Origin: Octopus sinensis
Lineage: Eukaryota
NCBI RefSeq assembly: GCF_006345805.1
Contig: NC_042998.1
Coordinates: forward strand, 85,312,001-85,376,000
Direction: 5' to 3'
DNA: 64,000 nt
The notes under the pieces are model-generated. The model ran no database searches and was not told where the DNA came from. It worked only from the letters and a program-made list of their open reading frames with translations. Made by a program: the position numbers and the translations under genes. Positions 118 to 51,999 of the stretch are shown one piece after another (the stretch's first letter is position 1; every line of letters starts with the position of its first letter).

Positions 118-122
118 TGTGT

Positions 123-18329: not shown

Positions 18330-18340
18330 ATTTAAAAGAG

Positions 18341-19480: not shown

Positions 19481-19656
19481 TATAGACACACAAATTATGA
19501 TATATAAATTTATAAGTAAGTGGATATCTAAGACAAAACACAAATGAAAAACATTGATGGAGTAATAATCATGAATTGCTTTCCTATTTTTGATTATTTT
19601 TCTATTTAGTCTTTTTTTACTACCTTAAAACCATTCTTATAAAAGATATTACTTAC

Positions 19657-19719
19657 CATAAGTTTTATGTTCTTCTTTTGGGTCTTTATCTTCTGAAATG
19701 TGATGCAGTGTAGGACTTT
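19657..19719 (-). CDS. 63-nt symmetric phase-1 exon, (E)SPTLHHISEDKDPKEEHKTY(G)
   Basis: Acceptor ttggtttttccag, donor ATG|gtaagt, open in phase 1, homologous to the exons at 31.0 and 50.4 kb. Confidence 0.75.
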
Positions 19720-19791
19720 CTGGAAAAACCAATTTTAAATTCCAAATTCAAACAGAACTAAAAGCTATAAATATTATAAAAAGATCATTAC

Positions 19792-20015
19792 TTAACCTAT
19801 TAACATTCACATTACTCTGTTCAATATAATACTTATTTATCCACATTGTTTGTAACTAATCATGCATTATCTTGTAGCTTTGAGACATTGATGATGCGAC
19901 TATTTTCAGAATGACATTCTAGGGTTGGAGTAAGAGGCTAGACCTGGCTGGTTTGAACATAAAACAGGTAGAATACTTGGGCTGTATATGGCCAGCTTAA
20001 ATGCTAAAGGGTTAG
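19792..20015. mobile_element. TTAA-flanked piggyBac-like MITE
   Basis: TTAACCTATTAACATT..AATGCTAAAGGGTTAG; inverted relative of 32908-33135. Confidence 0.7.
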
Positions 20016-21499
20016 ATCACAAATAAAAACCAAGCCAGCACAACTAAGCACGTTTTTAAGTTCAAAACTTTTAAAGTCTTCACATTCTTTGTCTGAATTT
20101 TGCTAGTTGAATGGGAAAAATGGAGTATTATTGTTAGTTAGATATTTCCATATGATAAGGTCTCCTTGCGCTGAGTTAACTAAGAAACAGCACAACCACC
20201 AACATCAATAAAAAATATTGTATCAAAGTAATTGTTAATTCACTTCAAACCAAACTTTTGAAGTGTATTTATTTTATTTCAGTTCTAATATACCGACTGA
20301 TCAATGTCAAATAAATTATTAAACTGGAAACTGCTAGAAGATGAATGAATAAATCAATAATTAAATAAATAAATAAAGGAACTTTGTTTACATTTAGAAT
20401 GCATTTTCTTTTTCTATCTAAGGGAGTTTAACCCTCAGAAATATGAGTTATTATTTATGGCTGAATTGGCATTCAAGATAATATCACTTATAAAAGACTT
20501 ATTTACATATTTCTCAATGCTTCTATATTTACATTCTAAATGTAAGCAAGCAAACAAACTTGCTTTCTCACTTGAAATATTAAAGTATGTAATTTGGATG
20601 TTTGAAAGTTGGAAGACTACATTAGTAAAATGGTATCATGACTCTCTGGGGGTACAGTTGAGACATGGTTTGTGTCCTGCAGTTGGCTTTCTGATTTGTT
20701 TCCATCTTGGGGTGGTTTTTGACCCTCTGTCTGCTTAATTATATAGTCTGATTTGTGTCCATAAAACATCATTTATAGAAGACATATTCACATGAAAGAA
20801 CCATTACAAAATATCTTGTTTAAAGAGAACACAATTATAACCCTGTACTCATTCATGCTTGTAAGTTTCATTCAAGTGAGGTCCAATAGTCACAACAGTC
20901 ATTTTGTCTAAAGGAAAAAAAAATCACTTGACAATTCTAGTCTAATCTCCCCCTTTATTTATATTCCCCATGTTCCACTTGATATTCACAATAAAATTAA
21001 TTTTCAATACTTGTGCATATATTGTAGATAATACAAGTGCTTATAACACTGTCAAGAGTTGCCAATGTCTTCTTAACTGATGTACCTTGACAGGAACTGT
21101 TTCAGCTACAATTTCTATGATAATCAATGAAAGGAAACTCACTATTTTCAGTGATATTTTAACTTTCATCATCATCACCATGAACACCTAGCCATTTATG
21201 TCTTGAGTAAAAGGACTCCTAAGGTCAGTTATATGGTTCCCTTGGTGCATAAGTGACTGAGATTACAATATCCCCCCTGAATGGGATGCCAGTCAGGTGC
21301 AGGGTTACTCAATTGCAGCTGAGTAAACTGAAGCAACTTGAAGTGTCTTGCTCAAGAATACAACACACCATCCAGTCCAGGAACTGAAACCATGACCTTA
21401 CAATCATGGGTGCCAACACACTAACTACTAGGCCATGTGCTTTCAAACATAATCTTATTTGGAGAAAAAGAAATTATTTTAACCAAATAGAAGGCTTGA

Positions 21500-21710
21500 T
21501 TTCTAACTGGGCCCCACCTGCAAGGTCGTGCGCTGTTTATCTTGATATGAGATCACCATGTCACGCACATATGGTTGTGATGCATGTGCCTAGTGTACCC
21601 TTATCAGACGGGTAGTCATGATGGGTATACTGGGCTTTGTATATTTTACCCCAGCGTCACTTTGATGGCAAGCACTGCTCTCTCACTCAATGATAATAAT
21701 AATAATAATA
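21500..21710 (+). mobile_element. 3' fragment of a non-LTR retroelement with a (TAA)n tail
   Basis: Matches the reverse complement of 8342-8495. Confidence 0.65.
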
Positions 21711-22491
21711 AAACTGAATTGTAGACCAAGTATATGGTACATGTGGTTAATTGGCAAAAATATGACCATTCCAAATATAATGGTATAAAGATAGTCTCCA
21801 TTTATTTTATTTTTATTTTTTACAGTGCACAGACATGATAAATTTTGCATAGACAACCCTCTTCTGGGTGGTTAAAACCCTATTATAACTGTATTACTGG
21901 TATCCTTTAGGATACCAGTAAATTTTCAAGATTTGTTTTAGGCAGAAAAACAACAACCATACTCAATGCTTGGTAATATGGTACTTTGTTTCACAAATTT
22001 AATATCTTATGATAATAGACCTACCATATGCTAAAGAAAATTGTTATCAGCTATTGATGTGTAACATAAATGATTCAAATCTGCTTTTAAAATTTCTCCT
22101 GATAATCCTGTTATATCAGATCTAATTCCAGCTTTAGATAATCATTGTGGTTATTTCCCAAGTATTAATGAGTCTGATGCAGTTTTGTTTACCCATTCAA
22201 GCTATTTAACCATAGTGAGATTTTAGGTGTACAATACTGGACATTTTACCCAAACTGAGGGTATATAGTATTTACCAGTTACTGTTTATGTATTTCAAAC
22301 AGACCCCAGTAGTTATTTTTATAAGTCTGCTTCTTATTTTATCAGTCTCTTTTGATGAACTGCAAGTTTATGGTGGGGGGGGGAAGGTGACATAGGCAAA
22401 CCAACATTAATTGTCAAGCAATGGTGGTGGTAGGTGAGACAAACACAAATATACATCCCCTGCCTCTCTCTCTCTCATATATATATATATT

Positions 22492-22662
22492 GCCATGTTG
22501 GACCGTTGAACTTACCTCATTTTTTCCCTCTTAACCCTTTCTGTTGAAGAGCGAAGGCTCGAATTGTGAAAGACTTTTCCATTTTTTCCAAGCATTAAAC
22601 TAATACACCTGCCTGTTGTTCCTACACCTATTTTTCACCTTCGGTTTTCTGTAAATTTGAAC
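22492..22662 (+). mobile_element. Penelope-like terminal relic between (TA)n runs
   Basis: CTGTTGAAGAGCGAAGGCTCGAA; homologous to the reverse complement of 46731-46860. Confidence 0.65.
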
Positions 22663-22676
22663 TATATATATATATA

Positions 22677-22913
22677 ATTTAATAAATACAATATATGTTT
22701 TTATGTGCTACAATTAGTTTCATGTGATGAAAGCAGCTTAGACAGTATCTTTTAAACACATCTGGTACCTTAGTACAATATTCGGGCAATGGTCACATGG
22801 AGCATCTGAAGACTGTGCTAAGGTATCAGGCATGTTAAAAAATACTGTCTGAGATGCTTTCATCACATGAAACTAGTTGTAGCACATAGAAACATATATT
22901 GTGTTTATTAAAT
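22677..22913. repeat. Foldback element, about 105-bp arms
   Basis: TATGTGCTACAATTAGTTTCATGTGATGAAAGCA pairs with TGCTTTCATCACATGAAACTAGTTGTAGCACATA. Confidence 0.92.
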
Positions 22914-23364
22914 AATATTTATCTCTCACCAGATTGAGTACTTTGTTTTGCTGATTTTACCATCATGGCACAGTAGACTATACATATGTTTTATCTTTAA
23001 CTTGTTTTAATCATTAGACTGTGACCATACTGGGGCACCACCTTGAAGAATTTTAGTTGAATAAATTGCCCCTGGTTCTCTTTTTTTTTAAAAGCCTGGT
23101 ACTAATCCTATTAGTCTCTTTTGCAAAACCACTAAGTTACAGGGATGTAAAACACCAGCACCAGTTGTCAAGCGGTGTGGAAGGGACAAACATGGAGACA
23201 AATACACACAAATGTGTGTGTGTGTGTGTGTGAGGCTTTGAGCAGTTTCTGTCTACCAAATCCATTAGTAGAAGACACTTGCCCAAGGTACCGCTCTGGA
23301 ATTATGTGGTCGGGAAGCAAACTTCTTACTACACACCATCATCACCCTCTTATACACACTATCA

Positions 23365-23777
23365 TCATTTAACATTGATTTTCCATGGTGGCATGGGTTG
23401 GATGGTTTGATCAGAGCTGGCAAGCTGTGGAGCTAAACAAGGTTCCAATCTGATTTGGTTTAGTTTCTACTGCAAGATGCCCTTCCTAACACCAAACACT
23501 TGGCCGATGCCAGCACCGCCTTGACTGGCTTCTGTGCCGGTGGCACATAAAAAAACACCAACCGATCGTGGCCGATGCCAGACCGCTCTGGCACCTGTGC
23601 AGGTGGCACGTAAAAAGCACCCACTACACTCGCGGAGTGGTTGGCGTTAGGAAGGGCATCCAGCTGTAGAAACACTGCCAGATCAGACTGGAACCTGGGG
23701 CAGCCCCTGGCTCCCCAGACCCCGGTCGAACCGTCCAACCCGTGCTAGCGCGGAAAACGGACGTTAAACAATGATGA

Positions 23778-23780
<3 letters not shown>
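23365..23780. mobile_element. Two family C (RTE-tail) copies in opposite orientation
   Basis: Minus copy at about 23365-23495; well-preserved plus copy ending GGACGTTAAACAATGATGATG. Confidence 0.8.
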
Positions 23781-23813
<33 letters not shown>

Positions 23814-23863
23814 CGGGAAGGTTTATGAAAATAAACAAAAGACAAAGGCAGGTTTACGAAAAT

Positions 23864-24524
23864 ATAAACAAATTAGACACATCAAAAATACTAAATACAT
23901 CAAATACAAGGTATGCATATATACACCTATACATGCAAAATGAGAGAAAGAAAAAGGTGGAAACTTTCAGATGAATTTTTATGCATAAATATATAGATAT
24001 TTATATTAATAGGTTCAACTTACATAGAATGCAAACAGAGGAAATTAAAGGGGTGGAAGAAAGGTATTATAAATCCAACAACTGTTTTCGGGGGCTGGGT
24101 GATCCATAATAATGTTGGTAGATTTAATCGGTGATCCATAATAATGTTGGTAGATCACAATATGCGAGAAGTTCAAGGATGGAACTTTTCTGCACCAAGA
24201 TCTGATATTTCAGATCTTCTATACCCTGATAACAGAGGCTTGTCTCATCCAATGTTAACTGCATCCATACAGCTGCATATTGTGATGAACTAAATCTACC
24301 AACATTATTTACGGATCACCAAGCCCACAGAAACAGCAGTTGGACTTTCCTTCCACACCTTTAATTTTCTGTTATTTGTACTCTGTAAATTGGACATATT
24401 AATATAAATATCAATATATTTATTCACAAAAATTCATCGTCTGAAAATTTCTACCTGTTGCATGTATACATGTATATATATTTTGCATCTGATATATTTT
24501 ATTTCGTTTGTCTAATTTGTTTAT
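23864..24524. repeat. Long foldback, about 250-300-bp arms, with an internal 32-bp tandem duplication
   Basis: ATAAACAAATTAGACA / TGTCTAATTTGTTTAT outer ends; ATCACAATATGC / GCATATTGTGAT inner ends; GGTGATCCATAATAATGTTGGTAGAT twice. Confidence 0.88.
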
Positions 24525-24789
24525 CCACATAATTACACCTGTACCCGCTCAACTTGATCCCTCTTATAGCCTTTCTTTACCTTGAGGTCTACCAGTTCTA
24601 CTCACAAGACATTGCTTGCCCCAAGGTAATAGTAGAAGACACTTGCCCAAGTGTCAAGCAGTGGGAATAAAGCTAAAACCATATGGTTGTGAACCAAAAT
24701 TCTTAACCAAAAGCCTTAGTTTGAATCTCTTGTGCACTACTAAGTGTCTTCTACACAGAGAATCTCTGGATCTCATCTGTGAACTATCA

Positions 24790-25110
24790 TTATCATCATC
24801 ATTTAACATCTGTTGTCTATGCTGGCATGGTTTGGACAGTTTGGCTGAGGTCTGACAAACCGGTGGGCTGCACCAGGCTCCAACCTGATCTGGCAAGGTT
24901 TCTACAGCTGGATGCCCTTCCTAACACCAACCACTCCAAGAGTATAAGGAGTTCTTTTACATGCCACCGGCACAAGTGCTGTTTGCATGACACCAGTATC
25001 TTCCATGACTATGATTTTACTTGGCTTGACGGGTCTTCTCAAGCACAAAATAATGTCAAAGGTCTCAATCATTGTCTCCGTGAGGCCCAACACTCGAAGG
25101 GAGCTTTTCA
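24790..25110 (-). mobile_element. RTE-clade LINE 3' end
   Basis: Remnant peptide LRVLGLTETM; homologous to 28757-28970; (GAT)n tail. Confidence 0.7.
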
Positions 25111-25539
25111 CATGCTACCAGCTCCATTTATTGAATCTATACATGTACCATTGCAGTGACATAGATCTTCAGCTGCCATGTAATCTATTAAAATTATGTT
25201 AATTCTGTAGAGAACCAATATTTAATTTAATTCATTTATTGATTGTACTTTTGCTAAGAATATTTAACAAATATATGTTTTGGCATAGGCATGGCTTTTG
25301 GTGAAGAATTTTGGTTCACAACCACATGGTCTTAGCTTTAGTCACACTGCTTGGCACTTGGGCAAGTGTCTTCTACTATTACCTTGGGCCAACCAATGTC
25401 TTGTGAGCAGAACTGGTAGACAGAAATTGCATGGAAGCACATATGTGTGCATAAAAGTTGTCATTTCCATTTCTTGTGTACGATTCGCTGAGTAAAAACT
25501 AAAAGACAAAAACCGTCTTGTTGTATTTACATTCTTATT

Positions 25540-25757
25540 TCATTATTGCCCACAAGGGGCTAAACATAGAGGGGACAAACAAGGACAGACAAAGGGATTA
25601 AGTTGATTACATCGACCCCAGTGCATAATTTATTAACCCTGAAAAGATGAAAGGCAAAGTTGACCTTGACGGAATTTGAACTTAGAACGTAACAGCAGAC
25701 GAAATACTACTAAGCATTTCACCTGGCATGCTGATGTTTCTGCCAACTCGCCGACTT
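25540..25757 (-). mobile_element. Family B SINE
   Basis: Reverse complement of the family B head and core. Confidence 0.8.
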
Positions 25758-28224
25758 AATATTGTATTTACATTCTTGGTAAACATTGTATCCTATAGCT
25801 CTATGCCCTCAAAGTAGTGGAATAAAATCTTCCTTACTTATGAAACAAGAAAGAGTTTTAGCCACAGGAATATCATCTGGCCTTGAAAATACTGCCTCAA
25901 ATAAGCACCTAATCTACATCAGTATGTAAAACAAATGAACCTATATTTGGTGGTAAGTGTCTTGCTGCTAGTACTAGCAGTTCTGTCTACCAGTTCTGCT
26001 CACAAGACATTGGTTGGCCCAAGGTAATACTCCTCCTAGTAGAAGATGGGTACCATAAAGCAGTAGAGCCATATAGCTTTCTGATTGACATTTTAACACC
26101 TGCTACTTTGCTGTGCTGAACTCAAATCTTTTCTTTATCAATAGAGACTAGACATAAAAGTGTCTCTCAAACACTTATTTAGTACATTGAAAACTGGTAT
26201 AAAGTTCAGTCCACAAATATTTCTTAGTAATTAATGAATGGATATGATGGAGAGTGAAACAAAGATTTCTATCTTGTAAACACACACATGGACACATACA
26301 CAGTGATGTGTCATCACATATGTGGCTATCATTTTATCTTGTCTAATTCATTTTAATACACTGTCTTATCTATATTTTCATAATTACATATATGTATGTG
26401 TATATATACATACATATATATAAACATATTTATGCTTAGATATACTATACACATACATATAAATGCATAAACACAGATATAGACATATTGTTTCTGTGAT
26501 TGTGTGTGTGTTGGAAAGAAATCTTAAGTCATTGGTGTTATGTACTTTTAACTGCTGAATGGAGATTTGCACTATTTCATAAAATACTGTCTAAAATATT
26601 TCTCTCTGAACAAAGCAAGATTAACACACATTTCACACCCATTTGTGGATTATGGGTTGTCTGTGTTCATGTATGAATGATAAAATTAGTAAATTAGCAT
26701 ACTGAAGGGTCAGTTAATGGATATAGACTTAATTATCTGAATATTCACGCTTAATGATTTATTTCTTTACTTTTTTAAGAATTGTGTTTAGTATAATTTC
26801 TACCTTTATTGTCTTGCATTCATTTTTATTTACTAAATGGCTGGGATGGATTTAGCAATAATCATTAGCAATAATCGTAACAATAGTCATTAGCTCAATA
26901 TTGTTGTAGTGTTTTATACAGTTGAGTGCCCATCTTTCTGAGAGTTGCTCAATTACAAACGTTGGATTGACACAACCTGATAGACCAAAGCAGCTTGTAC
27001 TATTTATGCTTCTTCTTACAATAGCTGCAGTAAATTCAAACATTTAGCCACATGGCTACTAGAGTAATCCTTTCACTGTGTCATTGTAGCTCTTAAATGG
27101 ATTAAGAGTAAATAAGTATAGACATGGCCTATTGTGTGGTTAAGAAGTTCACTTCCTAAATTAGGTGGATTAGAGTTCAGTCTCACTGCATGGCACCTTG
27201 GGCAAGTGCCTTCTTTTATAGGCAAACACTTTGCAAGTGGATATTGCAGACAGAACTGAAAGAACCCCACAATGTGTGCATGTCCCTTTTTTTGACCTCA
27301 TGGGGTCATTATAAATGAGAATCTCCTTTATGTAAGTGGGGTTTCTTGTTCCAGTCTTCTGTGGAAACATGTCTAGCTGCAGGGAAATTTATCTTGCTTG
27401 GAAACAGGTGAGAGTTGATGACAAGGGTATCCAGTCATAGAAAACCTGCCTCAACAAATTCCATCTGACCCATGTAATCATGGAAAAGTGGACATTAAAA
27501 TGGTGATGACAGTCACAGTGCAGTTGTCAGTCAACATTTTGCATGCTGCATTCATTCATTTTACAAGCTTTTTTGATGTTTGCATGGGTTGGACAAATAT
27601 GCTGAGGCATTGTTTTATAGCAGGCTGCCCTTCCTAAGGATAACCCTGATTTGCTTTGCAAGTGATCACTTATTCCACAAGCCTTCGAAGGCTCTAAGTG
27701 ACTTCCCAATTTGTTGACAGGAGACAATGTTGCAAAATTATTTCCAAAATCACACAATTAGAATGGCTATAATAAACATGATTACTTCACCTGTTTCTCA
27801 TATAGGCTTCGACTTGAGATATTTAGGAGGAATGAAATAGAATATTGTAATAGCCATGCTTTAATGAAACAATTGTAATTAAGAATTAGTCCTGAGTTTC
27901 AAAACCAATTTGGCATGATCCTACATTTTAATTTGCAGATATTGTTAACAGTAACCAGTTGATAATATGTATGCCCCTATTGATCAGGATTTTCTGTTGG
28001 ACAGGTTATTGCAGTGGCTTAAACTTGTAAATAGATGAATTTGTATTAATATGAATTTAATTAAAAAAAACTATGCTGGCATGTGTTAGGCACAGGCATG
28101 ATTGTGTGGTTAAAATGCCCACTTTGCAACCACATGGTTTTAGGTTCAATCCTTTTGCTATAGCCCTAGGTCAACCAATATCTTGTTAGTGAATTTGGTA
28201 GATGGAAATTGTTTCATATATATT

Positions 28225-28720
28225 CATCATCATCATCATCGTTTAACGTCCGCTTTCCATGCTAGCATGGGTTGGACAGTTCAACTGGGCTGCACCAGGC
28301 CAGTCAGATCTGGCAGTGTTTCTACAGCTGGATGCCCTTCCTAACGCCAACCACTCCGAGAGTGTAGTGGGTGATTTTATGTGCCACCGACACAGGTGCC
28401 AGACGAGGCTGGCAGACGGCCACGCTCGGATGGTGTTTTTATGTGCCACCGACACAGGTGCCAGACGAGGCTGGCAGACGGCCACGCTCGGATGGTGTTT
28501 TCTTATGTGTCACCGACACAGGTGCCAGACGAGGCTGGCGAATGGCCACGCTCAGATGGTGTTTGTTACGTGCCCTCAGCACGGAAGCCAGTCGATGCGG
28601 TACTGGCTACGGTCACGTTCGGATGGTTTTCTTATGTGCCACCGGCACTGGTACCACAAGGATACAAATTCCATTGATGTTCATCTATTTTGATTTGGTT
28701 TGATTTGATTTGATTTGATT
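28225..28720 (-). mobile_element. Young family C (RTE-tail) element with internal tandem repeats of about 62-65 bp
   Basis: ATGTG(C/T)CACCGACACAGGTGCCAGACGAGGCTGGC repeated three times at 28379-28570; CpGs retained; (GAT)n tail. Confidence 0.85.
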
Positions 28721-28756
28721 ATATATATTATATTTATATATATTATATATATAAAA

Positions 28757-28970
28757 CTGTGGAAGGAACTTGTGGTAGAGATAGACCCAAGAAGACATGG
28801 GACAAGCTGGTAAAGCATGATCCTTGAACTTTGGGCCTTATAGAGGCAATGACTAGTGACCAAGACCTTTGGAAATATACTGTGCTTGAGAAGACCTATC
28901 AAGCAAGTGAAATCATAGTCATGTCTGATACTGGTGTCCTGGCACCCGTGCTGGTGGCATGTAAAAAAAC
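28757..28970 (+). mobile_element. RTE-clade LINE C-terminal remnant
   Basis: Translates VEGTCGRDRPKKTWDKLVKHDP*TLGLIEAMTSDQDLWKYTVLEKT, the RGRP..W motif typical of RTE C-termini. Confidence 0.8.
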
Positions 28971-29084
28971 TATCAAGCATTGGGCCTCACAAAGGCAAAG
29001 TTTTCTTGAATGAGAAAATCTTTTTCTCATCAGCTGTAATGAAAAACTGCAAAGTCTAAGGAAGGGAGGTAATGTACCCAACCT

Positions 29085-30170
29085 TTGTAAGTCCTTTGAC
29101 ACTGGTGAGGGTTGTCACTGTTTAGCACCCAGTCAGACTTGTGTTAATCTTCTACCAAGACTTCCAGCTTGTGAGTACCAAGCCTCACTCATCTCTTGGA
29201 CCAGTAGCTTCTTGTCAGATCACATCATTATGGCACGTGTTGAGGGAACTCTCATTCTGTCTTACTCACAATTAACTCTAGTGTTCCCCAGAGTTCAGTT
29301 TGTCCCCTTACTCTTTTTTTTCTATATATCAACAACCTACTTGCTGCCACAGCCTACAATGCTCACTCCTATGCAGATAATACATCACTTTAATCCTCTC
29401 TAACCTTTCCCAACTATGAATCATCCACACACAACCTTAGCACCATACACCAATCTGCACTGATTCATTGATCAGCTTGAGAGAATTCTTTAGTGAGACA
29501 GTGCCAATCTTGTCTCTTTTAAGGAGGCAAAAAAAACTCAAGCATTACTCATGTCAAGGAAACATCACCACATCCCTTTAAATATGAACAACACTTAGCT
29601 ACAGTCTTCACTGTCACATCAAATACTTGGCTTCACTATTACCAAAATCTCTCCAGGCAAAAGCACATACTTAACATAGCTTGGACTGCAAATCAAAGAC
29701 TCCCAAAGCACTTCTCTTCAAGACCCAGAAAATATTTCAATTCTCAACAACTGCTCATGTGAAATTCACATTTGAGAGCTGATCCTGCAAATGGGACAGT
29801 ACTGCTGCTATGTTCAAAGACATCTTGAATCCAGAGAAAAGCCACTCAAATGATTGGCATTAAATCAATCAAACAGTTACGCAGTCTCTTCTATTACTAT
29901 GAAAATGATCTTTCCTCACAGCTGGCTAATCTTGTACCTTATCTAGTCAGACACTCCCAACCTGCCTGCCTCTCTCTCTTTCTTATCATATTTATTTTGT
30001 CCAACTGCCGAAGCCTTCTACTAACCAGTATTCTCAGCCTTTCCTAGAGCATCAGCCCTCTGGAATCTTCTTCCAGTTCATGCTTCTCTTACATATGCTA
30101 ACTTAACAACAGTTTAAATGGAACATTAACAGCATCAAGCAGATTGGTCTTAGAGGGAAAAGTGGGGTTG
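29085..30170 (+). mobile_element. Decayed non-LTR reverse transcriptase fragment (CR1/L2/Jockey group)
   Basis: Frameshifted motifs KSFD, SVPQSSV.PLLF..YINNL, HSYADNT. Confidence 0.75.
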
Positions 30171-30975
30171 AAAAGGTCATGAGCAATGCCTTTTCCTCCA
30201 AACTCAGCAAGTAAAAGAAATGTTATAAATAAAAACTATGGCCATCCAGTTTTCTTTTTTTTTTTTTTTTTTTTTTTTAGGCTTAGTGATTCAAGACTGC
30301 TGTTTTACCATGTCAAGTATCCAGATAAAGAGTCTGCCTAACTGGCTTATAACCAGTGGAGGGTGAAATAGGGGCAATGCAGTTGATGTCCAGCTTAAAC
30401 TTTTGTGGGTTGATACCTGTAGGAAAACCAAGACAGAAGTTCTGATGCTGAAGTTTATGGGTATGACAAGGTGCTTAGTGAAGGACTTTTAGACAGGTTA
30501 GACAACAGGTAATCAATTACACAAAGCAAGATACATTTTTGAAAAGTATCAAGCAATGTATACACATTTATAACTTTATGTTCATTTGCATACATATTTA
30601 CTAATTTACAGAGGAAAATATCTTTGAAAGCATTGAAATTACACTAAAGCTGTTTTTTCAATGGAATACATTTTTAAAGAAAGCTGTTACCAAAACATAA
30701 TGATAAAAACACAAGTATGAAGAGTACGGTAGATATGGTAGGGTATGGGTGTGTATAAACAAATATAGGTCTTTAAGTTGGTGAAAATGTGTAAAAAAGA
30801 TTGAAAGCCATCTTGTTAAAACTGAAGACATAGACAAAAAAGTAAAAAGAAATCAAAATATTGATTTTTTTTAGTTTATTTCATTCATTTTCTCTCTCTC
30901 CTTTAAAATATCCAGTAAATAATGAGGAGGAGGAGGGGGATAGTAAAAAGAGTGGTAATGAATAGATTTGCTTAC

Positions 30976-31038
30976 CTAACATTTTTCGGTCATCTATTAA
31001 TTCTCGCTGCTCACAGCTACTGTGTCGAATTAGACTCT
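30976..31038 (-). CDS. 63-nt symmetric phase-1 exon, (E)SLIRHSSCEQRELIDDRKML(G)
   Basis: Acceptor ttttttatttttgcag, donor TAG|gtaagc, only phase 1 is open, CpGs retained. Confidence 0.8.
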
Positions 31039-32907: not shown

Positions 32908-33304
32908 TTAGCCCTTTAGCATTCAAACTGGCCATATCTGGCCAAAATATTTAACCTGTTTTATATAGAAACTGACCAGATTTGGCCTTTTACCTCAGCC
33001 CTACCATGTCATTTTACAACTAAACAATCACATCACTGAAATCTCTAAACTACAAAGTAATGCATGATTAATTCAAAACAATATAAACAAACAAGCATCA
33101 AGTTTGACAGAATAACCTGAACACTAAAGGGTTAAAGTGATCTAAGTTAAAAAAAACTTCCACTAAAATTTCATGTTAATTTGTATCTTAAGAATCATCT
33201 TAATAACAACAAAGTTATTTCATAAAGCTTTTCATTATTTTCAAAATTAATTGAAATAATAAAGACAGTGTATTTCTATAGAAATATGGTAAAGAGAGGG
33301 TTAG
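32908..33304. mobile_element. piggyBac-like MITE (32908-33135) abutting a second related MITE half
   Basis: TTAGCCCTTTAGCATT..ACTAAAGGGTTAA; 33131-33304 resembles 59100-59272. Confidence 0.7.
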
Positions 33305-38980: not shown

Positions 38981-39333
38981 TGGTTATTTAAACAGAATAA
39001 TATTTCTGAAATGGAACCTTCATTTGGTTCCAACAACACATGAAGAGCTTATTTTTTTGTTTTCCACAAATGTTATCAAACTAATGTGAAAATATTTGGC
39101 CCTCTCCACTATTTTTTATTAATGAAGAAATAAAGTACTATCTGTAGCAACATAATTTCTCAATGTATTACTGATTTCTCAGGATCATTGCAATAAAAAA
39201 GAAATTCCTCATTAAACATGGTGTAGGCATGGCTGTGTGGTTAAGAAGCACTTTGGGTGTCTTCTACTATAGCCCCAGGCACTGACCAATGCCTTGAGTG
39301 AATCTGGCAGGTGTATGTGACCACCATTATCAT

Positions 39334-39365
<32 letters not shown>

Positions 39366-40658
39366 GTGTGAGTGTTTGCACCCAAACTGTTTGACCACTG
39401 ATACTGGTTTGTTTACATCACAACTTAGTGCAGCAAAAGAGACCTACAGAATAAGTACCAGACTTCATCTTTCTTTCAATATAAAAGGACTAAGGTGGCA
39501 AGATGGCAGAATCGTTAGGCAAAACGTGCCAGGCAAAATGCTGAGGTTGACTTTGCCTTTCATCCCTTTGGGGTCAATAAAATAAGCACCAGTTGAATAA
39601 TGGGGGCAATTTAACTGACTTAACCAACCCCTAAAATTGCTGGCTCTGTACCAAAATTTGAAACCAATATAAAAGGATTAACACTGTCATTTATTCTGTT
39701 CAAGGATGCGTAATGCTGATAAGTTGTAAGGTGCAGGGATAGTTGTGGGGTTTAGAAGTTCACTTCCCAATCACTTAGTTTCAGTTTCAGTCCCATGGTG
39801 AGGAGCCTTGGATAAGTGTCTTCTGCTATAGTTCCAAGCCAAACAAAGCCTGGCAAATCAATTTGCAAGACAAAATGTGCGTGTGTGTGCATGGTAGATT
39901 TTCCTGTCATAGACAACAAATGATTTCTGTAATTTCTTGCTCAGCAACCTGCACAGATAATTTGTTTATAGCGATTAAATGTTTGTGTTGTACATTAACT
40001 TACACCCTCCATCAAACTGACATTGCCTCTACAGAGGCACAGTGTGCCACACATCAGATGTCAAAGTGACTGCAAAGCAACATGAAGTAAAATGTTTTGA
40101 ACAAGAACACAAAACAGCAGCCGATTCAGAAATGACAACCACTTTCTTGCAATTGTGTGTGCAACACCTCATCTGCTAAACTATGCACCTTCAAACAAAC
40201 ACACACACACGTACGTATATATGTGTGTTCCCATGTCTTGACATTATGTGATAGTTGTAAACAAGTGTCCTATAAGCAGTATCATTTGTCTAATCTGTGA
40301 AAACATGTCCAGTTTATGGGGAAATATTACCTTACTCAGAAACAAGTGGTAGTTTGCAACAGGGAAGAAATCCAGCAGTAGAAAATATATACCATTAATT
40401 TCTGCTTGACCCATGCAAGCAAAGAAAAATTTATGTTAAAACAATGATGATGATAATTCAGCTTCATATGCTGAAAGCTGGTGGCTATAGGGAAAACTTG
40501 AATAGGGAGTTCTCAAAAACTGAAGTTGTGAGGAGAGAGGAAGTATAAATGACCTTACATGGAACTAGTTGAGGAAGCAGAAGTCACTACAGTAGCAATA
40601 GTGACAAAACATTAACCTATGAGGAATGTTTGTATTATGTGAGTGAAATTTAGCCTCT

Positions 40659-40892
40659 CAGTGGTTCTCAACCAGGATCCATATAAGATTTTGTTGATAA
40701 AGTTTATGTACAATAAATTGATTATACTTCTAATATACACAAAATGTTTTAATAATCATTTTTATGTAATTCGCAATAAAATTTAATTATAAAAATATAA
40801 TAGGACTTTTAAAACATTGAATGGCTTCGAACATCCAAGTAAAATAATAACCAAAGTGGTCCAAAAGTAAAAGAAATGGTTGAGAAACATTG
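40659..40892. mobile_element. hAT/Charlie-type MITE
   Basis: TIRs CAGTGGTTCTCAACC / GGTTGAGAAACATTG; TSD not preserved. Confidence 0.75.
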
Positions 40893-41697
40893 AGCTAGAT
40901 AGTCTTTGGAAGTGGACACAGATTAGGTAGTTAGAGATATGTGAGTACCATGAAAGACTGGTTTGTGAGACCTAACATTTGTAACAAGTTTGGAATGATG
41001 CTATTTAGCTTAAATAAGCCCTGGTTGAGCAACTTCATGATCAAAGATGTTCCAGCCATAACTCTATCCAGTGTATTTTAAAACCATGAATCTCTTTTCT
41101 TTTTTAAAAGATTATTGTGATTTGAGTGAAATTTAGCAGCTAATTCTAACTGTGAGGTGTTTCTGGGTGAAGAGGGTCTAGTATTGTAAAACTGTTTCTA
41201 ATGTGTGTATAATGACTGTCCTTTAGTGCCGTTCAGTAAAACATGGCTAACATGATTTCATTGGGAAATGTTTAGGAGGTTTGTTCAAATCTAGTTTAAG
41301 TTACATGAGGACTATATCTGAGGGCAGAAGGTTAAGGAGGAATGAAGGGTGAATTATCAGTATATGAATATGAGAGTGATTAGAATTAAGAATAACACAA
41401 GAATATACAGGAAATAGATGGGAAAACAGAACTGAAGATTACAGAGTTGATGGTTCATATGATATAACCAAAACACAACATTCAATGATGTAATGCATGC
41501 AACAGTTCACTGTTGTAAGGAATAGAAGCAGAGTAAATAATTAATTTAGCTGATGGTACTGAGTTCCACTCACCATCACAGGTTTAGCTAGGAAAATAAT
41601 GAGCTTTGCTAAATTGACTTGGTTTATTCTAGATACATTGCATAGTGAAAAAATCTTTTATACTGTCCCAATAACTCAGATGTGTGCATGAATATAT

Positions 41698-41985
41698 CAT
41701 CATCATTTAACATCAGCCTTCTATGCTGGCATGGGTTGGATGGTTTGACAGGAGCTAGCAAGCCAGAGGACTGCAACAAACTCTACTATCTGTTTTGGCA
41801 TGGTTTTTACAGTTGGATGCCTTTCTTAATGCCAGCCACTAAACAGAGTGGAGTGGGTGCTTTTTATGTGGCACCAGCACTGGCAAGGAATGTTTAGCAC
41901 AGTTTTTGTGGTTGGATGTCCTTCCTAATACCAACCACTATACAGAGTGGACTTGGTGCTTTATATGTTACACCAGTACTGGCAA
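41698..41985 (-). mobile_element. Family C relic with internal duplication
   Basis: GTTGGATG..ACAGAGTGGA..CACCAG.ACTGGCAAG occurs twice. Confidence 0.7.
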
Positions 41986-44084
41986 GACACACAATACATC
42001 CACACATTTTGAAGTTTCTCCAGCAGCAAATTTCATGAATAAGAAACACAGCCACTGGTTCTAGTTCATTTCTTTTTATTATTATTAGTTAATTGGATAT
42101 CAAGTTGACTAATAATGAAAGAGTGAAATAGAACCAGTGATTGCTTTTTATCAAAACGATCCTTCAAATTACACACACACACGCACAATTATTATCATCA
42201 GCATTATAATGTCTACTTTTCCATGTTTGCATGAATGAGACAAAAGGACACTGGACAGTTTTCAGTAGCCAGATGCCATTCCTGATGCCAACTCCAACCT
42301 GTTTCCTAGTGAGATAATAATTTTTTTCCAATCTATCAGACAACAGCCTGGATAAAAGCAGCAATTTCTGACACTGTCAGCCATCATTTACAACCAGCAA
42401 ACACATGTGAAGACAAGGGAAAATAAGGATGCATTCAAACACTTATATGCATACACACACACCCATACCTGAAAAGACCTTAAGCAAGGGCTCAAGTATT
42501 TCAGCTGATTATTCTTGAGCCAACTTGTGTGCTAGCTAAGGTTGTAAAGCAAACAAAGAGTTAATAAAAAGTGAGGGCCCAGTGGGATTTAAATCTAATC
42601 CCATCTCAACATTACCATAAAAAAACAAACAAGATTATCATATTAAACAAACCAATAAAATCTATTTTGTCATTTGACCTGTTCAATACAATTTCAACAT
42701 TTCCATTTGACAATCTCCCTACTATCATCATTAGGACAACTTCTTTGATCTATTCAATATAATAGAACAGCTCCCTATCAACTTAAAAAAGGAGGGAGGG
42801 AGAGAGAAAAGGTAGAGAAAGGAGAAATCACATGTTTAAATTTTAAATCTTGGGGCAACATTCTATAATGAAAACAGGAAGGTCATGACTGGAAATGTCA
42901 CGAATGATTGTATTCTTGTTTTGATGCATCATTTACCTCCAAGTCATAGCTTAAAGGTAGAGGATCAAACAGAGCTGACCCCCAAATCAAGTTGACATTA
43001 AAATACTTTGCATCAACAATGAGACATCAGGCATCATGATAGCGTATATTTACCACAATCTTGAATAGCACTGAGAGATCAGAAGACTTGACGGACAAAA
43101 GTAATATCATGCTATAAAAATCTCTAAGTAGTGTAAATTACCACAAAACTCCATGTATAATCTTTTTGTTGCATCCATTGGATTGTGGTCATGCTGTTGC
43201 ACTCCCGTGAAGGGTTTAATCAAACAAACTTCCCCCTTTATATATATTTTTTAAAAGTCTGACACTTATTCTATCAGTCTTTTTGCCAACTAAGTTAAAA
43301 GAATGTAAACAAACTAATACCTGTCATCAAGCAGTGTGGTGGTGGAGGTAAAACAGATACAAACACACACACGTGTGTGTGTGTGTGTGTGATTAACAGT
43401 TAATCACACGTGTGTGTGATTAACAGTTAACATCTGTTTTCTGTGCTTACATGGGATGGATGGTCTGATGAGAGCTGCCAGGGCCAGGAGCCACACCAGG
43501 TCCCATTGTTTTGTCATGGTTTCTACAGCTGGATGCTTTTCCTAATGCCAACCACTTTACAAAGTGGACTGGGGGCTTCTTATGTGATGCCAGTGTTTTT
43601 TGCACGGCACTATCACCAACAGGCTCACATAAGTACTTTGCAAGATAAAAAAAACCTTCAACTGAGAGTGAAGAATAGTATTGAGCAGGGTGTTGGCACT
43701 GTACTAGTTAGATTTAAAGGTATAGAGAATAGAGATAGATGTGTTACTGTCGAGTCGATACATGGATACCCCAGTTGGAAAACAAAGGTGGGCAAGACAC
43801 ATACAATAGGCTTCCACACAGTTTCTGTCTACTAAATTCACTCACAAGGTACTGGTTGGCCAAAGTGCTGTTCAGTGGGGCTGAACCCAAAATTACATGG
43901 TTACAGCACAATGTTTTTAACCACACATTCATACCTATATGTTTTTCAACAAAATAAAGATTAAAATTAGGGGTGCTTATAATGCATGGCACTGAGTTGC
44001 AAAGTTCACCCACATGCACAAACAAACTTACTGAAGAAAAACACAATACTGTAATAAAGCTTTATTAGCTTTAATTATATTTTC

Positions 44085-44415
44085 TTTTCTTGTTTTAGTC
44101 ATTTGACTGCAGCCATACTGGAGCACCACCTTTAGTCAAACAAATCAACCCCAGGATTTTTTCTTTTAATACTTACTCTATCGGTCTCTTTTGCCAAACC
44201 ACTAAGTTACAGGGATGTAAACACACCAACATTAGTTGTCAAGTAATGATGGGACAAACACAGACACACAAATACATATATATACGAAATCCACTCACAA
44301 GGCTTTGGTTGGCCCAAGGCCATAGTAGAAGACACTTGCCCAAAGTGCCACACAGTGGGACTGAACTTAGAACCATGCGGTTGGGAAGTAAGCTTCTTAC
44401 AACTCCTGCACCTAT
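44085..44415 (-). mobile_element. Family A SINE
   Basis: Similarity to 4130-4553. Confidence 0.85.
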
Positions 44416-46730
44416 ATATCAATTTATTTTACATAGATACTAAAAACTGCAATTCTGAATTATAGTAAATTATTTTTTCTTGTAAGAATTGTTTAATGCT
44501 GCTTATTATACATAAGGTTTTTGAGTCAGCAGGTTTTGTCCTTGACCAAAGCACTTCATTTAATGTTAATCCAATCTACTTAGGTAAAAAAGAGAACTAG
44601 TTGGGTGCTGGTGCTCTCTCTCCTTCCAGCTGTCACATTCTCAGTGTTCTACTGGGTCAAAAGAGGAAACCTGCAAAGGTGTTAGTTTGACAAGAAGTGA
44701 AACAATGAACAAAATCATCAAGTGATATTCAGCAGATAATGAGTACTTGCTGAGTGCTGGTGCAGCTCCCACTTCCTCCAGCTGTCACATCTTCAATGTT
44801 CAGCTGGATCAAAACCTAAGAGGTCCACATAAGTGCCTAAAACAATTAGTGATAACATGGTAAGTGCCACCAAGTGATAATACTTGACTATAAGTTTTAC
44901 TAATGAACAGAGTGACATCAGTTGCCAAGGTTATGAATAATGTTAATGAAACAGAGCATCAGAACTGCAATTCCCCAGTCACTTACACAAAAAGCAAGGG
45001 CTTGCTTTCTTTCTGTACCTTACAGCACTGCATCTAATCTATTTAATTTTCTTTAATGTTAACAAGAAACTACAAATTTGTAGATATGGAGTTAATTTAC
45101 TACCAACAGAACTTGACTGGTGGCTTATTTGACTATCCCAAGTGAATAAAAAGCATATACAATCCCAACAAGATTGTGTAAGGCACTCTTGTTATTATTA
45201 CTACCACCATCACCATCATCATTTATTATTCCACTAATCATGGATTTGAGAAATAGTATTTGTTTACAAGCATAAAATAACTAATGTAAAAAGGCTGTGA
45301 ATGAAGATGTTCTATGAATGCAGAATCAAAATAAAAAAAAATCCAAAATCCTTCCCTTCATCCTTGGTTGATAACTGATAACTAAAAATAGGAGTATTTA
45401 AAGCATTCATATACTTTTGTTTGAAAATCCACAACAGCCTGCAACATTTTTCTCCTGAAAGTCAATATGGCCTTTGCTGCTTTCTAAACTGTTCAGGCCT
45501 ATCATAATGGAGAGAGAGGGGGAGAGAGAGAGGTGAAAACATACATGATGCATGTGTGCACACACAAAACAAAATTTTGAATCATAGAATTAGGCCTTAT
45601 TAAATGCGTTTTAACTGGTTAGCTAACAACAGGTCACCTTATCTTTCAACAATGACTGCATAACTAAATGCTAAAGCATGACCCTATTCCACAGAACTAC
45701 TGTATTAAAAACAAAAATAATAATACATTACAAAATAAACTGAAGCAAACAATTCAAAAAGTGTGTCATTGACAATGAAGCTTTGAATGCGGTTTGTAAT
45801 TTTGGTTAACTGAGAAGGAATTTCTGAAACCTAAATATAACTTGCACATATTATCCAGACAGTTGGAACTGGTTTTGTAGTAAGAAAATCTACATGAACA
45901 AGCAATTTTGTTTCGTTTTAAAACGTGTGGTATATGGGATGAGGGGGGATATTATAATATGTTATCAGGTAAATATGTGTAAGTATTTCATTATTGCTTG
46001 CAAAATAGAATAAGAATTGCTAATTTAAAAGGCTTTTTAAAACTTTATTTTACAAGTTTTTTGTTTGTTTGTTTTTCAAAATTCTTCTTGGGTTGACACT
46101 TATTAGTTGCAATATCTTAACATTCTTTGAATATGGCACAACTGAAACCAAAGATGGGATGGAACACCCTTTTTTTTTTAAACAAGATTGTATGACTTAA
46201 CTGAAATTTATTTGATTGGTTGTGTTAAAATGGTGTAGAAATACCAACTTCTGCTTATAGATAACACTTTGCTTGCATGTTGGTACACATTTGTGTGCTT
46301 GCATGCATGTCCATGTGTTTGTATATAAGAATTAGTGGTAAAAGTCATAAAGGCTTTTGAAAATATTACTTTTTTTCTCTAGATTCAAAAGTATCAACTG
46401 ATTGAGAAGTTAACCTGCTTCCAGATCAGGGGTGCTCAAACTGGATATGTGTATACCTAGGAGTACAGTACACAAGTGAAATTGCAAAGGTACACAAGGT
46501 GTGTAAAAGCACTGGGATTTTAAAAGAATCTCAACCAGCTAAATGCAGCTTGCAAATACAGAAAATGTGTAGTATGCTGTTTGCTATTCCTATCCAATTA
46601 TCATTTTGGACAAGTATTTTCAGCAATGTTTATAACCCAAGAAAAATTTCATGCAAAATAGGCATGACTCTCTGAAATTGTGCCTAGAATTGAGTTACTT
46701 ATGCTCATCCATATCATATATATATATATA

Positions 46731-47506
46731 GGGTGAGAATTCACAAAAAACAAAAGACAAAAACAAGTGGTGTAGACAACAAACAGATGTATTAGTATAA
46801 TGCTCAGGAAGTGTAAAAGTCTTTAACGTTTTGAGTCTACGCTCTTCCACAGAAAGAAACAAGGAGAGAAAATAAAGAATGTGTAGTGGCTAGTGATCTA
46901 TCATGGCGAATGCCAAACAGAAGGGTCACACGGGAGAGCTAGGAAGAAGGGGAGATAATAAAGTAGTGGTGATCCCAAAATGAAGGTGCATGTGTGTGTG
47001 TGTGTGTATAAGTGAGTTTGTATGTGCGTGTGGAAGAGGGCTGGTGATCTTGACATGTGAGTGTGTGTAGGTGCAAAAATGTGGGTCTGTGAAGTGGTCA
47101 ATGCTAGTGTGTGCATGGTGGTGTGTTGTGTGGTATGGTGGCATAGGGTGTAGTGGTGTGTGTGATGGTGTTGGGTGGTGGGGGAGGCGAGTGGGGTGTG
47201 GGTTAGGCTTAGGGGGGTGGGGTGGGCTGACGATGAAGGAGAAGGTGGGTAGGAGAAAAGAAGTAGGAGTCAGAGCAAGAGAGGAGAGGTGGGTGGGAGA
47301 GAGGCGAGGGAGGAGAGTTGGACCCATGTGGCGCAAAGGAACAAAGAGAGAAGATCAATCCCTGTTCACGGCACACACGGGAGTCCGGATGGCCCCTGTG
47401 CAAGGACAATCTGAACATGGACAGGTGTTGCAAAGAGTGACCAGTAGAGTGGAAATGGCGTGAGATCATGGTGTCATTGCCGAGTCAGATGTCTCAGAGG
47501 TGTTTG
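46731..47506 (-). mobile_element. 5'-truncated Penelope-like retroelement: GIY-YIG endonuclease C-terminus plus 3' region
   Basis: KHL*DI*LGNDTMISRHFHSTGHSLQHLS..REQGLIFSLCSFAPHGSN resembles the PLE EH..HF...HS..E..I..L....P.GLN signature; hammerhead-like motif at 46824-46852; ends at a (TA)n run. Confidence 0.85.
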
Positions 47507-47848
47507 TTCTCTTAAGAACGTATAAGAGTACAAATAGAGCTCATTCACCCTTAGAATTCCCAAATAGCCAGTAGTATTCTTATGGTATGTTGCCAATTCT
47601 AGTCTTAGTTTCAAAGAAGAAGCTATGGATGTTATAGCATGGAAATCTAGATTTACTTATGGAGACAGCAACTGAGTATCGCCTGAGGAGATACATATAG
47701 ACCCTCTTATACAAGTAAACCGTTACATAATTTCATTTAAACTAAACTTTAAATCCATGTATCAAAACATTTGTAGTGATTAAAAAGTTGCCTAACCGTA
47801 CTTACTCTTCCTTTTGACTCTTTTACTTTATATGTATGTATGGATGGA

Positions 47849-47881
<33 letters not shown>

Positions 47882-50406
47882 TATATATATAACACAAAAA
47901 CATTAAATTAAGTGAAACTCATTTCTCATAAAGGCACAAAATTAGAAATTTGGGAGCAGGGAACAGTCAATTATACAGACCCTAGTATTTAACTGGTATT
48001 TTATTTTTCTTAACCTCAAAAAGGGGGTAATCAATTTAACTACTCCTAGATATGAGGATAAAAAACTGCACCTGTCTGACAAGCCATGCTGAACCAGTGT
48101 GGCAGAGTAGGCTCGTCAAACCAGTATGATCTCAACCTCAGATTCAAGGCTTCCTCATCTGACTGTGATTGAGAACATGCTAAGGCCTTTGTCCTGCAGT
48201 GGACTGACCATGGGCAATCCAGTCCAACCCCAGAAGGATAAAAACCAAAATTGACCACAATATGTTACTCAACCATTTTACACAAAGCAGCCAATCTATA
48301 AGGTGGAGCCTTTGTCAGTGGGAAGGCTGGTGCACTGCAAAGCTATTGAAGGAAGGTCTCAAAACAGCATACATGTTCTCTTGATGACTCCCGATACACA
48401 CCTGGTGTGTAGAAATTTCAATTGGCAGCATATGCACAAGCAAGTTGTTTCCAAATCAACACACTGGAAGGAAAAGTTTAAGGACACCTACAACCCAGTA
48501 AACCTGAGATAAACATTTAATTAGACATCCATCCACAAAATACAAACCGTTAAAGGCCTTTCAATCACATTACTTATCTACCTGGCTATATCACAACACC
48601 TCTATAAACCACTAGAGGAATATCTATTGCTAGAAACATCAATCAAATTTCCCCTAGACCATACACTATCCACATAAAAAGGAAGAACACATTCACAAAT
48701 GTAACTGAAGATCTCCATATAAAAAATGCAAGATCGATGGCTGGAACACCTTCAATCATAGGTCTGCTTGGTGAGAATTCACCTGGAGCAAATGAACTAT
48801 GTATTAGAATAACAATAAAGCAACTTGAGGTGACAAATTGGCAGGATTATTAGGGTGTTGGATAGAATGCCTTGTGATATTTGTTCTGATCCATTGCATA
48901 CTGAGTTCAAATCACACCAAGGCCAACTGTGCATTTCCTCTTTTCATGGTTGAATAAAAAAAAAAAAAGAACCAATCCAAGGTGGTGAATTAGCTAAACA
49001 ATTAGAACATAGGACAAGATGCTATTAGGAATATGTTTCAGCTCTTTGTGTTCTGACTGCAATGCCTATAATAGCACTGATGTCAAGTTGATTCAGTCCT
49101 AAGGTGGTGGTGTTTCCCTTGGTGCAGAGAGGGGAGACTACATGCATAGGTAAGAACCAGTCTTTTACAAAAATCCTTGTTCAGACACCTACACATACAG
49201 TTCTTAGTCAACCACGACCACCAGAGGCTTGTAGAAGGTGATTCTATGCAAATGATACAACTATTTCTTATGTAAATGACTCTTGAAGAACTTATGAAGA
49301 AGTTGGGTTGATTATCTTAAGAGTAGCAACATTTTAAAAAATACTTATTAATATTTTTCATTGCAGTCAATTTCCCATGGCGACAGACTAACAGATTTGG
49401 TAGAACAACAAATATAATACAATATAATGCCTTTTCATATTTAGCTCATTTATATTCTCAGTTCAAATCCTTCCAAGATTGACTATGTGTTTCAACCTTA
49501 CATGGTGAGTAAATTCCAACAAAGTACTGGTATTCATATGATCAACTGTTTCTTCCCAAAACTGTGTCGCCTCGGGCCTAAGTTACAAATCAATATTTTT
49601 GATTACAAACAAATCCAATAGACGCCAACAAGGAAAAACAGACATAATTCTAATGATGAATTACACCAATTAAAATTCTTGGTTTAACATAGTTTAATTA
49701 TTTTACATTCAATTGTACTATAATAACTTGACTAGATTGACAGGTTTTGAAAATTTCTATGCTAATTGTTGGAGCAAACACCTCTAACAAATAAATTAAC
49801 ATGGAATTGCAGAATGGCTCCCATTACCAGGAGAAGAGATTAGGCTGGATATCTAGTGTAATGTGACTTGGTCTTAAAGCACAGTTCAATACATAAGGTA
49901 AAGCTAAAATATCTGGTTTATGTTGTCTAAAAGAGGACATATCCAACACTTTAGTGTGTCAGCTTCTTCAGTTAATAGTTTCTTTCAGACTATGTTAAAG
50001 ATCTCATTCCTCTTTACCCCCATCGAAAGTGCCATTCTCTCTTGAAATCCTAGCTATTTTAGATGTGCTTTTATTATATCATTCCATACTCAATTTCGTA
50101 CACGAATAAATAAATAAATACTAACAACTAGGAGTGCAAACAGCTGTCTGTAGTTCTGTCAGGTCTATTAATTAATGAGATGAATGCAATCAGCACCAAG
50201 TAAAACCCTCTTTGAACTGTTAAAGTATTTCTGTCAACAACTCAAATCATTGAGGTGATGGGGTAGAAAGAACTCTCTCTCTCTCTCCCCTACTACCTAT
50301 TTCTTGCCAAAAAAAAAAAATGGAAAAGAAAAAAACACAAACATAAATTATGCTGCTACACCAAAGACAGCATCTCTTTTGAATAGCATTGGTAATTCTT
50401 ACTCAC

Positions 50407-50472
50407 CAAAGGGCTTGCGGTCTTCTAACATATTTTCCCTTGGCTCATTCCTCTCTTGATGATTCAGACTTT
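50407..50472 (-). CDS. 66-nt symmetric phase-1 exon, (E)SLNHQERNEPRENMLEDRKPF(G)
   Basis: Acceptor ttgttgtttttcaatag after a long pyrimidine tract, donor TTG|gtgagt; homologous to the 31.0-kb exon. Confidence 0.8.
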
Positions 50473-50759
50473 CTATTGAAAAACAACAACAAATTGAAAG
50501 ATAAAAATGATAAAAATAGAAATAAAGAGAGAAAAAGAGACAGAAAAGAAAAAAAAAAGAGAAGAAAAAAGAAACGAAAGGAAATGTTGCTGAATGTATG
50601 GCTAACTGAAGCACAACATTTATATGATTGGTCAATATTATACTGTCTATTTATGTGAATAGTTAGTAGTATTAAATAAGAGACATAACATTATGTGGTA
50701 TATATAAGATTATTAAACGAAATATTACATGATCTAATGTTAGTAATTAAATCGATACT

Positions 50760-50761
50760 CT

Positions 50762-50805
<44 letters not shown>

Positions 50806-51961: not shown

Positions 51962-51999
<38 letters not shown>

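Follow-up and report, generated by a model that had tools for sequence, protein, structure and literature searches.

The region examined here, a 64,000-nucleotide stretch of the Octopus sinensis genome (G000:C2:85312001-85376000; hereafter the window), raises the question of which gene owns three small, similar exons on its minus strand, which we call R1, R2 and R3, and how these exons are joined in the transcript. An earlier note had predicted them from the letters of the window as exons of 66, 63 and 63 nucleotides (nt), each in phase 1 at both ends and closing with a G, and all three peptides are recovered where they were predicted. R1–R3 are the first three of five units, with one small phase-1 exon per unit. 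The note left the host gene unnamed; on sequence evidence we identify it as a nuclear receptor orthologous to oyster NR1CDEF-beta. We hold the five-unit, exon-per-unit anatomy with high confidence, and we give a probability of about 0.6 to the reading that this serial repeat in the A/B region of NR1CDEF-beta is likely a flexible, multivalent regulatory tract of tunable length.

When the peptides are relocated on the minus strand, each exon is bordered by AG on one side and GT(A/G)AG on the other. The splice sites had been called strong; on a simple matrix only the acceptor of R2 is strong (10.7, against 4.7 for R1 and 2.6 for R3). The remark that a single one of the exons appears in the open reading frame (ORF) track stands, as the frame of R1 alone is found among stop-to-stop ORFs of at least 70 residues. 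Against shuffles, the R1 and R2 peptides are clearly alike (z 5.1, p 0.0005), R2 and R3 less so (z 3.0, p 0.008), and R1 and R3 least (z 2.3, p 0.027). R1 and R2 resemble each other in DNA as well (40/66 columns, z 5.6), and triples as alike as R1–R3 came up in 113 of 200,000 random draws from 826 exon-like candidates, overlapping draws being skipped. By sequence alone the likeness is real but modest, and suggests kinship without proving it. That the exons themselves are real is settled by spliced contigs, public protein models and an independent profile. Built only from the six units of the non-octopod protein P0005, and so containing no octopus unit, this profile puts R5, R1 and R2, in that order, in the top three places of 11,866 ORF pieces, with R3 in fifth place; it misses R4.

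The whole window (1..64000, minus strand) sits within the 5' part of the gene. We scanned 100 kb of flank on each side for splice-flanked exons, and the splice sites revealed a fourth similar exon 7.5 kb past the window's left edge. A query with the hinge exon returned 56 proteins from 2,204 candidates, and in the Octopus proteins among them the three peptides follow one another without a gap and lead, through one or two further units, to the DNA-binding domain (DBD). All coding exons of one such protein, P0057, map in order on one strand (Table 1), and Pfam finds both zf-C4 (96.1 bits) and Hormone_recep (55.7 bits) in it, which places it in the nuclear receptor superfamily. The DBD exon, further downstream on the same strand, begins in phase 1. 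The repeat makes up most of the A/B region, immediately before the DBD; this position, after the start codon and ahead of the DBD, corresponds to the activation function 1 (AF-1) region (PMC4070562). The introns are long, at 96.8 kb from the first exon to R1, 23.2 kb from R3 to R4 in the longer models and 54.7 kb from R5 to the DBD.

Table 1 Exons of the receptor gene and a candidate first exon. Plain numbers are positions in the window; LBD, ligand-binding domain.
Feature	Position	Strand	Remarks
First coding exon	G000:C2:85459303-85459348	minus	outside window; exon map
Repeat exon R1	50407-50472	minus	66 nt, phase 1-1, ends in G; internal Met is the start codon in some models
Candidate alternative first coding exon	38215-38245	minus	ATG at 38245, phase-1 GT donor; would join R2 and bypass R1
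Repeat exon R2	30976-31038	minus	63 nt, phase 1-1, ends in G
Repeat exon R3	19657-19719	minus	63 nt, phase 1-1, ends in G
R4	G000:C2:85308395-85308451 (L012:6395-6451)	minus	cassette, 57 nt, donor CT in this assembly; outside window
R5	G000:C2:85304398-85304469	minus	72 or 69 nt, tandem CAG-CAG acceptor; outside window
DBD exons	G000:C2:85249631-85249728 and 85247173-85247323	minus	Pfam zf-C4
Hinge exon	G000:C2 about 85245534-85246903 (L018:3534-4903)	minus	variable, 456 codons
Three LBD exons	within G000:C2:85231187-85236574	minus	Pfam Hormone_recep

The octopus genome thus holds homologous exons in one gene with equal phase at both ends, the pattern of tandem exon duplication. The idea that three related exons lie here holds as to their kinship, which exceeds that of shuffles, but the array is bigger than was supposed, with five units across 58 kb; the accompanying idea, that an old exon duplication gave a modular charged repeat of frame-preserving symmetric exons, is supported by the models and the unit alignment. 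A sixth unit was not found in 264 kb around the gene, nor in 30 kb further upstream. Searches of the own genome with the R1 and R5 peptides, weak tests with one candidate each, returned self-matches only. One match to the repeat profile in the first intron (G000:C2:85400451-85400540, minus strand, locus L004; E 0.005) was rejected: it has no pyrimidine tract and no phase-1 donor and borders repeated DNA, and we take it for chance or a relic unit. Since public Octopus gene models already contain the exons and their host, we claim no new gene here.

Public names for this gene are E75B-like, NR1D2-like and uncharacterized. Both CgNR1CDEF-beta primers translate to peptides found in the oyster orthologue cluster and neither alpha primer does (primers from the supplement of PMC4070562); the oyster orthologue, CgNR1CDEFb, is EKC29666 (Vogeler et al. 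2014, PMC4070562), whose available text calls the placement of the NR1CDEF group unstable. In a search with a stricter first look, the three best own-genome matches of that oyster protein are this locus. The octopus and oyster DBDs are identical at 63/72 positions, and the orthologues are also alike in hinge motifs and LBD. In a tree of DBD plus LBD (36 rows; six were dropped for lacking the LBD anchor pattern), cephalopod, bivalve, gastropod and nemertean orthologues form one clade at 100/99, a clade that also takes in two divergent unnamed rows and comes with long-branch warnings. The rows outside it are ones that we take to be ROR/HR3-, E78- and Rev-erb-like, and the octopus receptor lies apart from the presumed Rev-erb-like clade.

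The LBD of the octopus receptor is like that of NR1D/Rev-erb/E75 proteins in that the closest solved structure is NR1D2, with the helix-11 His aligned. In NR1D/Rev-erb/E75 proteins, however, the LBD ends after helix 11, without helix 12, and heme is bound by the His in helix 11 and a Cys before helix 3. Unlike these, the octopus LBD runs about 20 residues past helix 11, with a helix predicted at 865-869. As to the heme ligands, the letters immediately preceding helix 3 include no Cys; the position expected for the heme Cys falls outside the structural alignment. Best match and clade together identify the host as the octopus orthologue of the oyster NR1CDEF-beta orphan receptor, which has been little studied, and the E75/Rev-erb annotation should be corrected. 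The oyster receptor is among five receptors that differ between sexes in an expression paper (PMC5041327), and its accession is listed in one tapeworm paper.

To ask which units are joined and which skipped, we turned to sequencing runs, of which 24 were listed and 20 contain the hinge exon, all as assembled contigs; seven distinct runs were examined, X2 being in both sets. Over the stretch 19400-31200, 4/4 runs connect 19719 directly to 30976; the joint has CT..AC ends, and its shorter side spans 63 letters. The R3 stretch is likewise covered edge to edge in 4/4 runs, with no flanking intron and with R2 letters upstream. R2 and R3 are joined in all seven distinct runs. X1, X2 and X7 go from R3 directly to R5, in contigs of 2833, 3175 and 3386 nt that leave room downstream of R3 for the remaining 2330 coding bases. 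Run X5 splits after R3 into a 121-nt path (depth 9.4) and a 58-nt path (depth 4.7), 63 nt apart; judged by eye, the mixed loose end combines R4 and R5, and the R3–R4 and R3–R5 paths are both present. R4 is skipped in both runs of the best-matching organism examined at R3.

The protein models agree. Eleven Octopus-cluster proteins have a DBD. R3 and R5 are present in every one of these, R2 likewise (one begins inside it) and R4 in eight, while R1 is whole in six, entered at an internal Met in three, replaced by another first exon in one and not reached in one. R1 is present in P0001, P0057, P0060 and P0061, and the R1–R2 junction is found in P0066 (from a 3174-nt Logan contig). Since R2–R3 is joined in every run and R4 is both in and out, the array is serial: R2 and R3 are co-included, and R4 is the only internal cassette seen.

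The earlier note had instead supposed that R1–R3 are used singly, mutually exclusively or in free combination. Every unit does preserve the frame, R4 shows that one member of the array is a true cassette, and the R2–R3 contig of X5 stops at the 5' edge of R2, as it would at a branch. The constant R2–R3 junction stands against free use, as does the finding that no Octopus-cluster DBD model lacks R3, and no path skipping R2 was seen at R3 in 4/4 runs. Mutual exclusion would place one paralogous exon in each transcript, and R2, R3 and R5 lie in the same contigs. Inclusion and skipping are both documented for R4, by X5 and the models; skipping of R2 or R3 was not seen in contigs, which drop rare variants, so that rare events of this kind could go unseen. 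We therefore drop the note's version of splicing as highly improbable and keep the serial array with R4 as its cassette.

Two features of the splicing deserve mention. The R4 donor reads CT rather than GT here, in single copy, yet public models of the same species include R4; this may reflect an assembly error, an allele or a copy being lost. The candidate first exon within the window matches the N-terminus of P0065, one older O. bimaculoides model, at 9/10 residues; it lies in weakly repeated DNA and may be an exonised repeat.

Conservation of the units, which the earlier note had named as a test, is found in other octopods and in a decapodiform-like protein. P0005 and P0068 (Logan contigs of 2849 and 2960 nt) carry six collinear units, D1–D6. 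The tree does not group P0005 with Octopus and Argonauta, which form a clade of their own, but places it close to a cuttlefish protein, at weak support. At the protein level a layout of one exon per unit would agree with the lengths of its units and with the additional residue that precedes unit 5. The best cross-species scores pair R1 with D1, R2 with D2, R4 with D4 and R5 with D5; D6 is similar to D4 (z 11), and no octopus unit corresponds to it. Eight of ten forks in the unit tree are open. The shared order suggests that the duplications likely predate the octopod–decapodiform split. R1, R2, R3 and R5 are identical between two Octopus species, R4 being the only A/B difference. The C-terminal core common to the units, [LIY]E[DE][HR]Kx[FY], recurs in 10/11 units of P0061 and P0005, and is lost in this genome's R4, which has diverged and is two residues shorter.

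The exons might be real and yet unrelated, their likeness a matter of shared charged composition. The similarity between R1 and R3 is weak when taken alone (p 0.027), and the R4 peptide of this genome resembles none of the other four (p 0.16-0.85). The shuffles preserve composition, however, and the units of P0005 are clearly related to one another, by the D4–D6 score and also by that of D1 and D4 (z 6.8); together with the DNA likeness of R1 and R2 and the recovery of four octopus exons by the P0005-only profile, this largely refutes the idea of unrelated exons, to which we attach almost no credence.

Outside the cephalopods the units were not detected. The repeat profile finds nothing in non-cephalopod proteins, NR1CDEF-beta orthologues included, among 139 (best E 0.58) or 151 (best E 1.3), sets with no protein named Nautilus, and the P0005 repeat region searched against short proteins yields 0/21 candidates at E 0.1. 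The Argonauta model has unit 5 only and the cuttlefish model none; these gene predictions may have missed small exons. An exon-per-unit A/B repeat therefore appears restricted to the coleoid sequences examined. No description of it for this receptor was found in the open-licence literature, and it is apparently undescribed.

Other orthologues have A/B repeats of their own: unrelated internal repeats occur in 8/22 non-cephalopod orthologues, at a level reached in 0/100 shuffles. In abalones (P0020, P0131-P0133) these are five to seven hydrophobic-W-K-K/T motifs, and others among P0046, P0047, P0054 and P0056 include 20-residue and 8-residue arrays in Gigantopelta and a doubled 12-residue unit in clams. 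Such repeats may be ordinary for disordered regions. A clam LEERKL motif resembles the octopus core (8.8 bits, p 1.5e-4 per site), no better than matches in the hinge.

What the repeat does can be framed as follows. We propose that one symmetric exon was duplicated in tandem, repeatedly, before octopods and decapodiforms separated. The resulting units are joined serially near the N-terminus of octopus NR1CDEF-beta, in its A/B region. The tract spans 107-131 residues, about one third of them charged, with recurring RRxS/T and SP sites besides the common core. It would lack a fixed structure and be flexible and multivalent, and cofactor docking or phosphorylation may occur on the core and at the RRxS/T and SP sites. 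The number of units is lowered by R4 skipping, as seen above, and is likely altered also where, in the models, another first exon removes or truncates R1; the three-base acceptor shift at R5, also from models, would add or remove one residue. The length of the tract would then probably tune the transcriptional output of the receptor.

Several observations weigh against this proposal. The repeat is not covered by any Pfam family, and a binding partner is thus not suggested. In the AlphaFold model its confidence score (pLDDT) is 26-34, but the DBD fails in the same model, which is then no evidence of disorder. The R1–R2 and R5–DBD junctions rest on public models and Logan-contig proteins rather than run contigs. 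The non-octopod evidence is one cluster of two proteins (P0005 and P0068), and the pairing of R3 leans on order and a weak tree, as it scores 41 with D6 and 40 with D3. The octopus units do not fit the published 13-column HKKF matrix with its basic flank. Finally, between octopus and the decapodiform-like protein the repeat is identical at 56/109 positions, against 304/442 in the hinge, 72/73 in the DBD and 192/205 in the LBD.

This lower conservation fits a loosely constrained spacer, and the most direct statement of that idea is that symmetric exons duplicate harmlessly where the A/B region is unstructured and tolerates them, that only length and charge are kept in a nearly neutral tract, and that R4 is a decaying copy. 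The divergence and shortening of R4, its non-GT donor in this assembly and the unrelated repeats in the A/B regions of other orthologues would all suit such a history. It accounts less well for the retention of unit order, length and C-terminal core across octopods and the decapodiform-like protein, and for four units invariant between two Octopus species. A nearly neutral spacer is in our judgement unlikely, while a sequence-specific regulatory role for the repeat falls a little short of even odds; a regulatory tract of tunable length, as proposed above, remains the reading we prefer.

A more specific possibility is that the units end in variants of the HKKF motif, the array serving as a multivalent dock for the Smrter/NCoR-SMRT co-repressor complex. 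Several units end in H-K-x-F/Y, the fly Eip75B has an HKKF repressive domain, and Smrter is enriched by HKKF domains (Klaus et al., PMC9890238). The best unit, D5 of the decapodiform-like protein, reaches 5.8 bits (p 3e-4). The octopus units, on the other hand, score from -4.3 to -13.8 bits, below incidental matches in the DBD and LBD (3.4 and 3.8); acidic residues replace the motif's basic flank, and the hinge already offers a strong match, PIKKR, at 13.5 bits (p 1.6e-5 on the Smrter-linked matrix of PMC9890238). An HKKF dock made of the repeat is accordingly highly improbable.

In the hinge, P[IL]KKR is present in 15/16 orthologues and ALHGLL in 16/16. As the PIKKR sequence matches the Smrter-linked matrix, the receptor likely has repressive capacity, which the repeat would modulate. 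Conserved islands in the hinge exon comprise ALHGLL, ALSLLL, LDLR, PIKKR, PVNLS and two SUMO-type sites, and these islands suggest a multi-motif repressor. Two further candidates were set aside. One is a likeness of R2–R3 to LBD helix 11 (E 0.026), which P0005 does not share; in orthologues, moreover, helix 11 reaches no more than 2.2 bits on the core matrix. The other comprises FxxLF-like motifs that span unit junctions, together with inverted SUMO sites, neither of which is conserved from unit to unit.

The elements of this arrangement are known separately, as repeats made by exon duplication with one cassette unit and as A/B isoforms made by alternative first exons. The tau 3R/4R repeats and the N-terminal mini-exons of troponin T arose by tandem duplication of symmetric exons, one unit being alternatively spliced. 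The octopus array is like them in having one exon per unit, equal phase on both sides, serial inclusion and a cassette that alters unit number, and unlike them in lying in the AF-1 region of a transcription factor, in being lineage-restricted and in its spread across 58 kb of intron. E75A/B/C, EcR-A/B1 and PPAR-gamma1/2 are nuclear-receptor A/B isoforms from alternative first exons, and public octopus models likewise differ in first exon and start codon; what varies in octopus, however, is how many homologous units are present, and not which of several unrelated N-termini is used. Dscam1, with its mutually exclusive clusters of duplicated exons, shares tandem paralogous exons in one gene, but the octopus units are included together.

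AF-1 regions are hard to dissect because they offer no alignable modules. The octopus modules are natural and unit-matched across species, and one of them is naturally skipped, which makes it possible to test directly how motif number affects transcription. A bolder view, which we offer as speculation and consider rather doubtful, is that coleoids assembled the activation region of an orphan receptor out of docking modules, each the size of one exon. Promoter choice and a cassette exon would then set, like a rheostat, how many modules bind one cofactor, from three to five in octopus and as many as six in squid-like sequences; the abalone, vent-snail and clam repeats would be independent solutions to multivalency.

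Apart from the receptor, the window contains a 62-bp tandem repeat of 4.4 copies at 28375-28656, which belongs to an interspersed repeat of very high abundance in the runs examined and with related copies in the flanks. Elsewhere in the genome, on contig C6 (84165092-84181737, minus strand, loci L055-L057), lies a long tandem run of nuclear-receptor-type C4 zinc-finger DBDs, with a 2989-codon open frame holding at least nine of them. Its public models (P0140, P0142 and P0143) include proteins of 4009 and 4182 residues with 13 Pfam-passing DBD stretches and no LBD match, followed by a selenocysteine-lyase domain. A 3526-residue model has 11 DBDs and no lyase, and the O. bimaculoides lyase entries are 422 and 446 residues long, and the join to the lyase may therefore be an artefact of gene modelling. 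Only two matches came from a homologue search over proteins of 1325-4218 residues, and the available text of a nomenclature paper on 2DBD receptors (PMC10497141) has no mention of octopus or 3DBD. This 13-DBD gene, unrelated to the receptor repeat, is possibly more surprising than the repeat itself. Of 109 zf-C4 matches in the genome, many have equal scores and sit several per contig, often with one internal stop, on small contigs (C8699, C8701, C12460, C12463, C12465, C3455 and others); they may stem from short introns or assembly repeats, or DBD-bearing copies may have multiplied.

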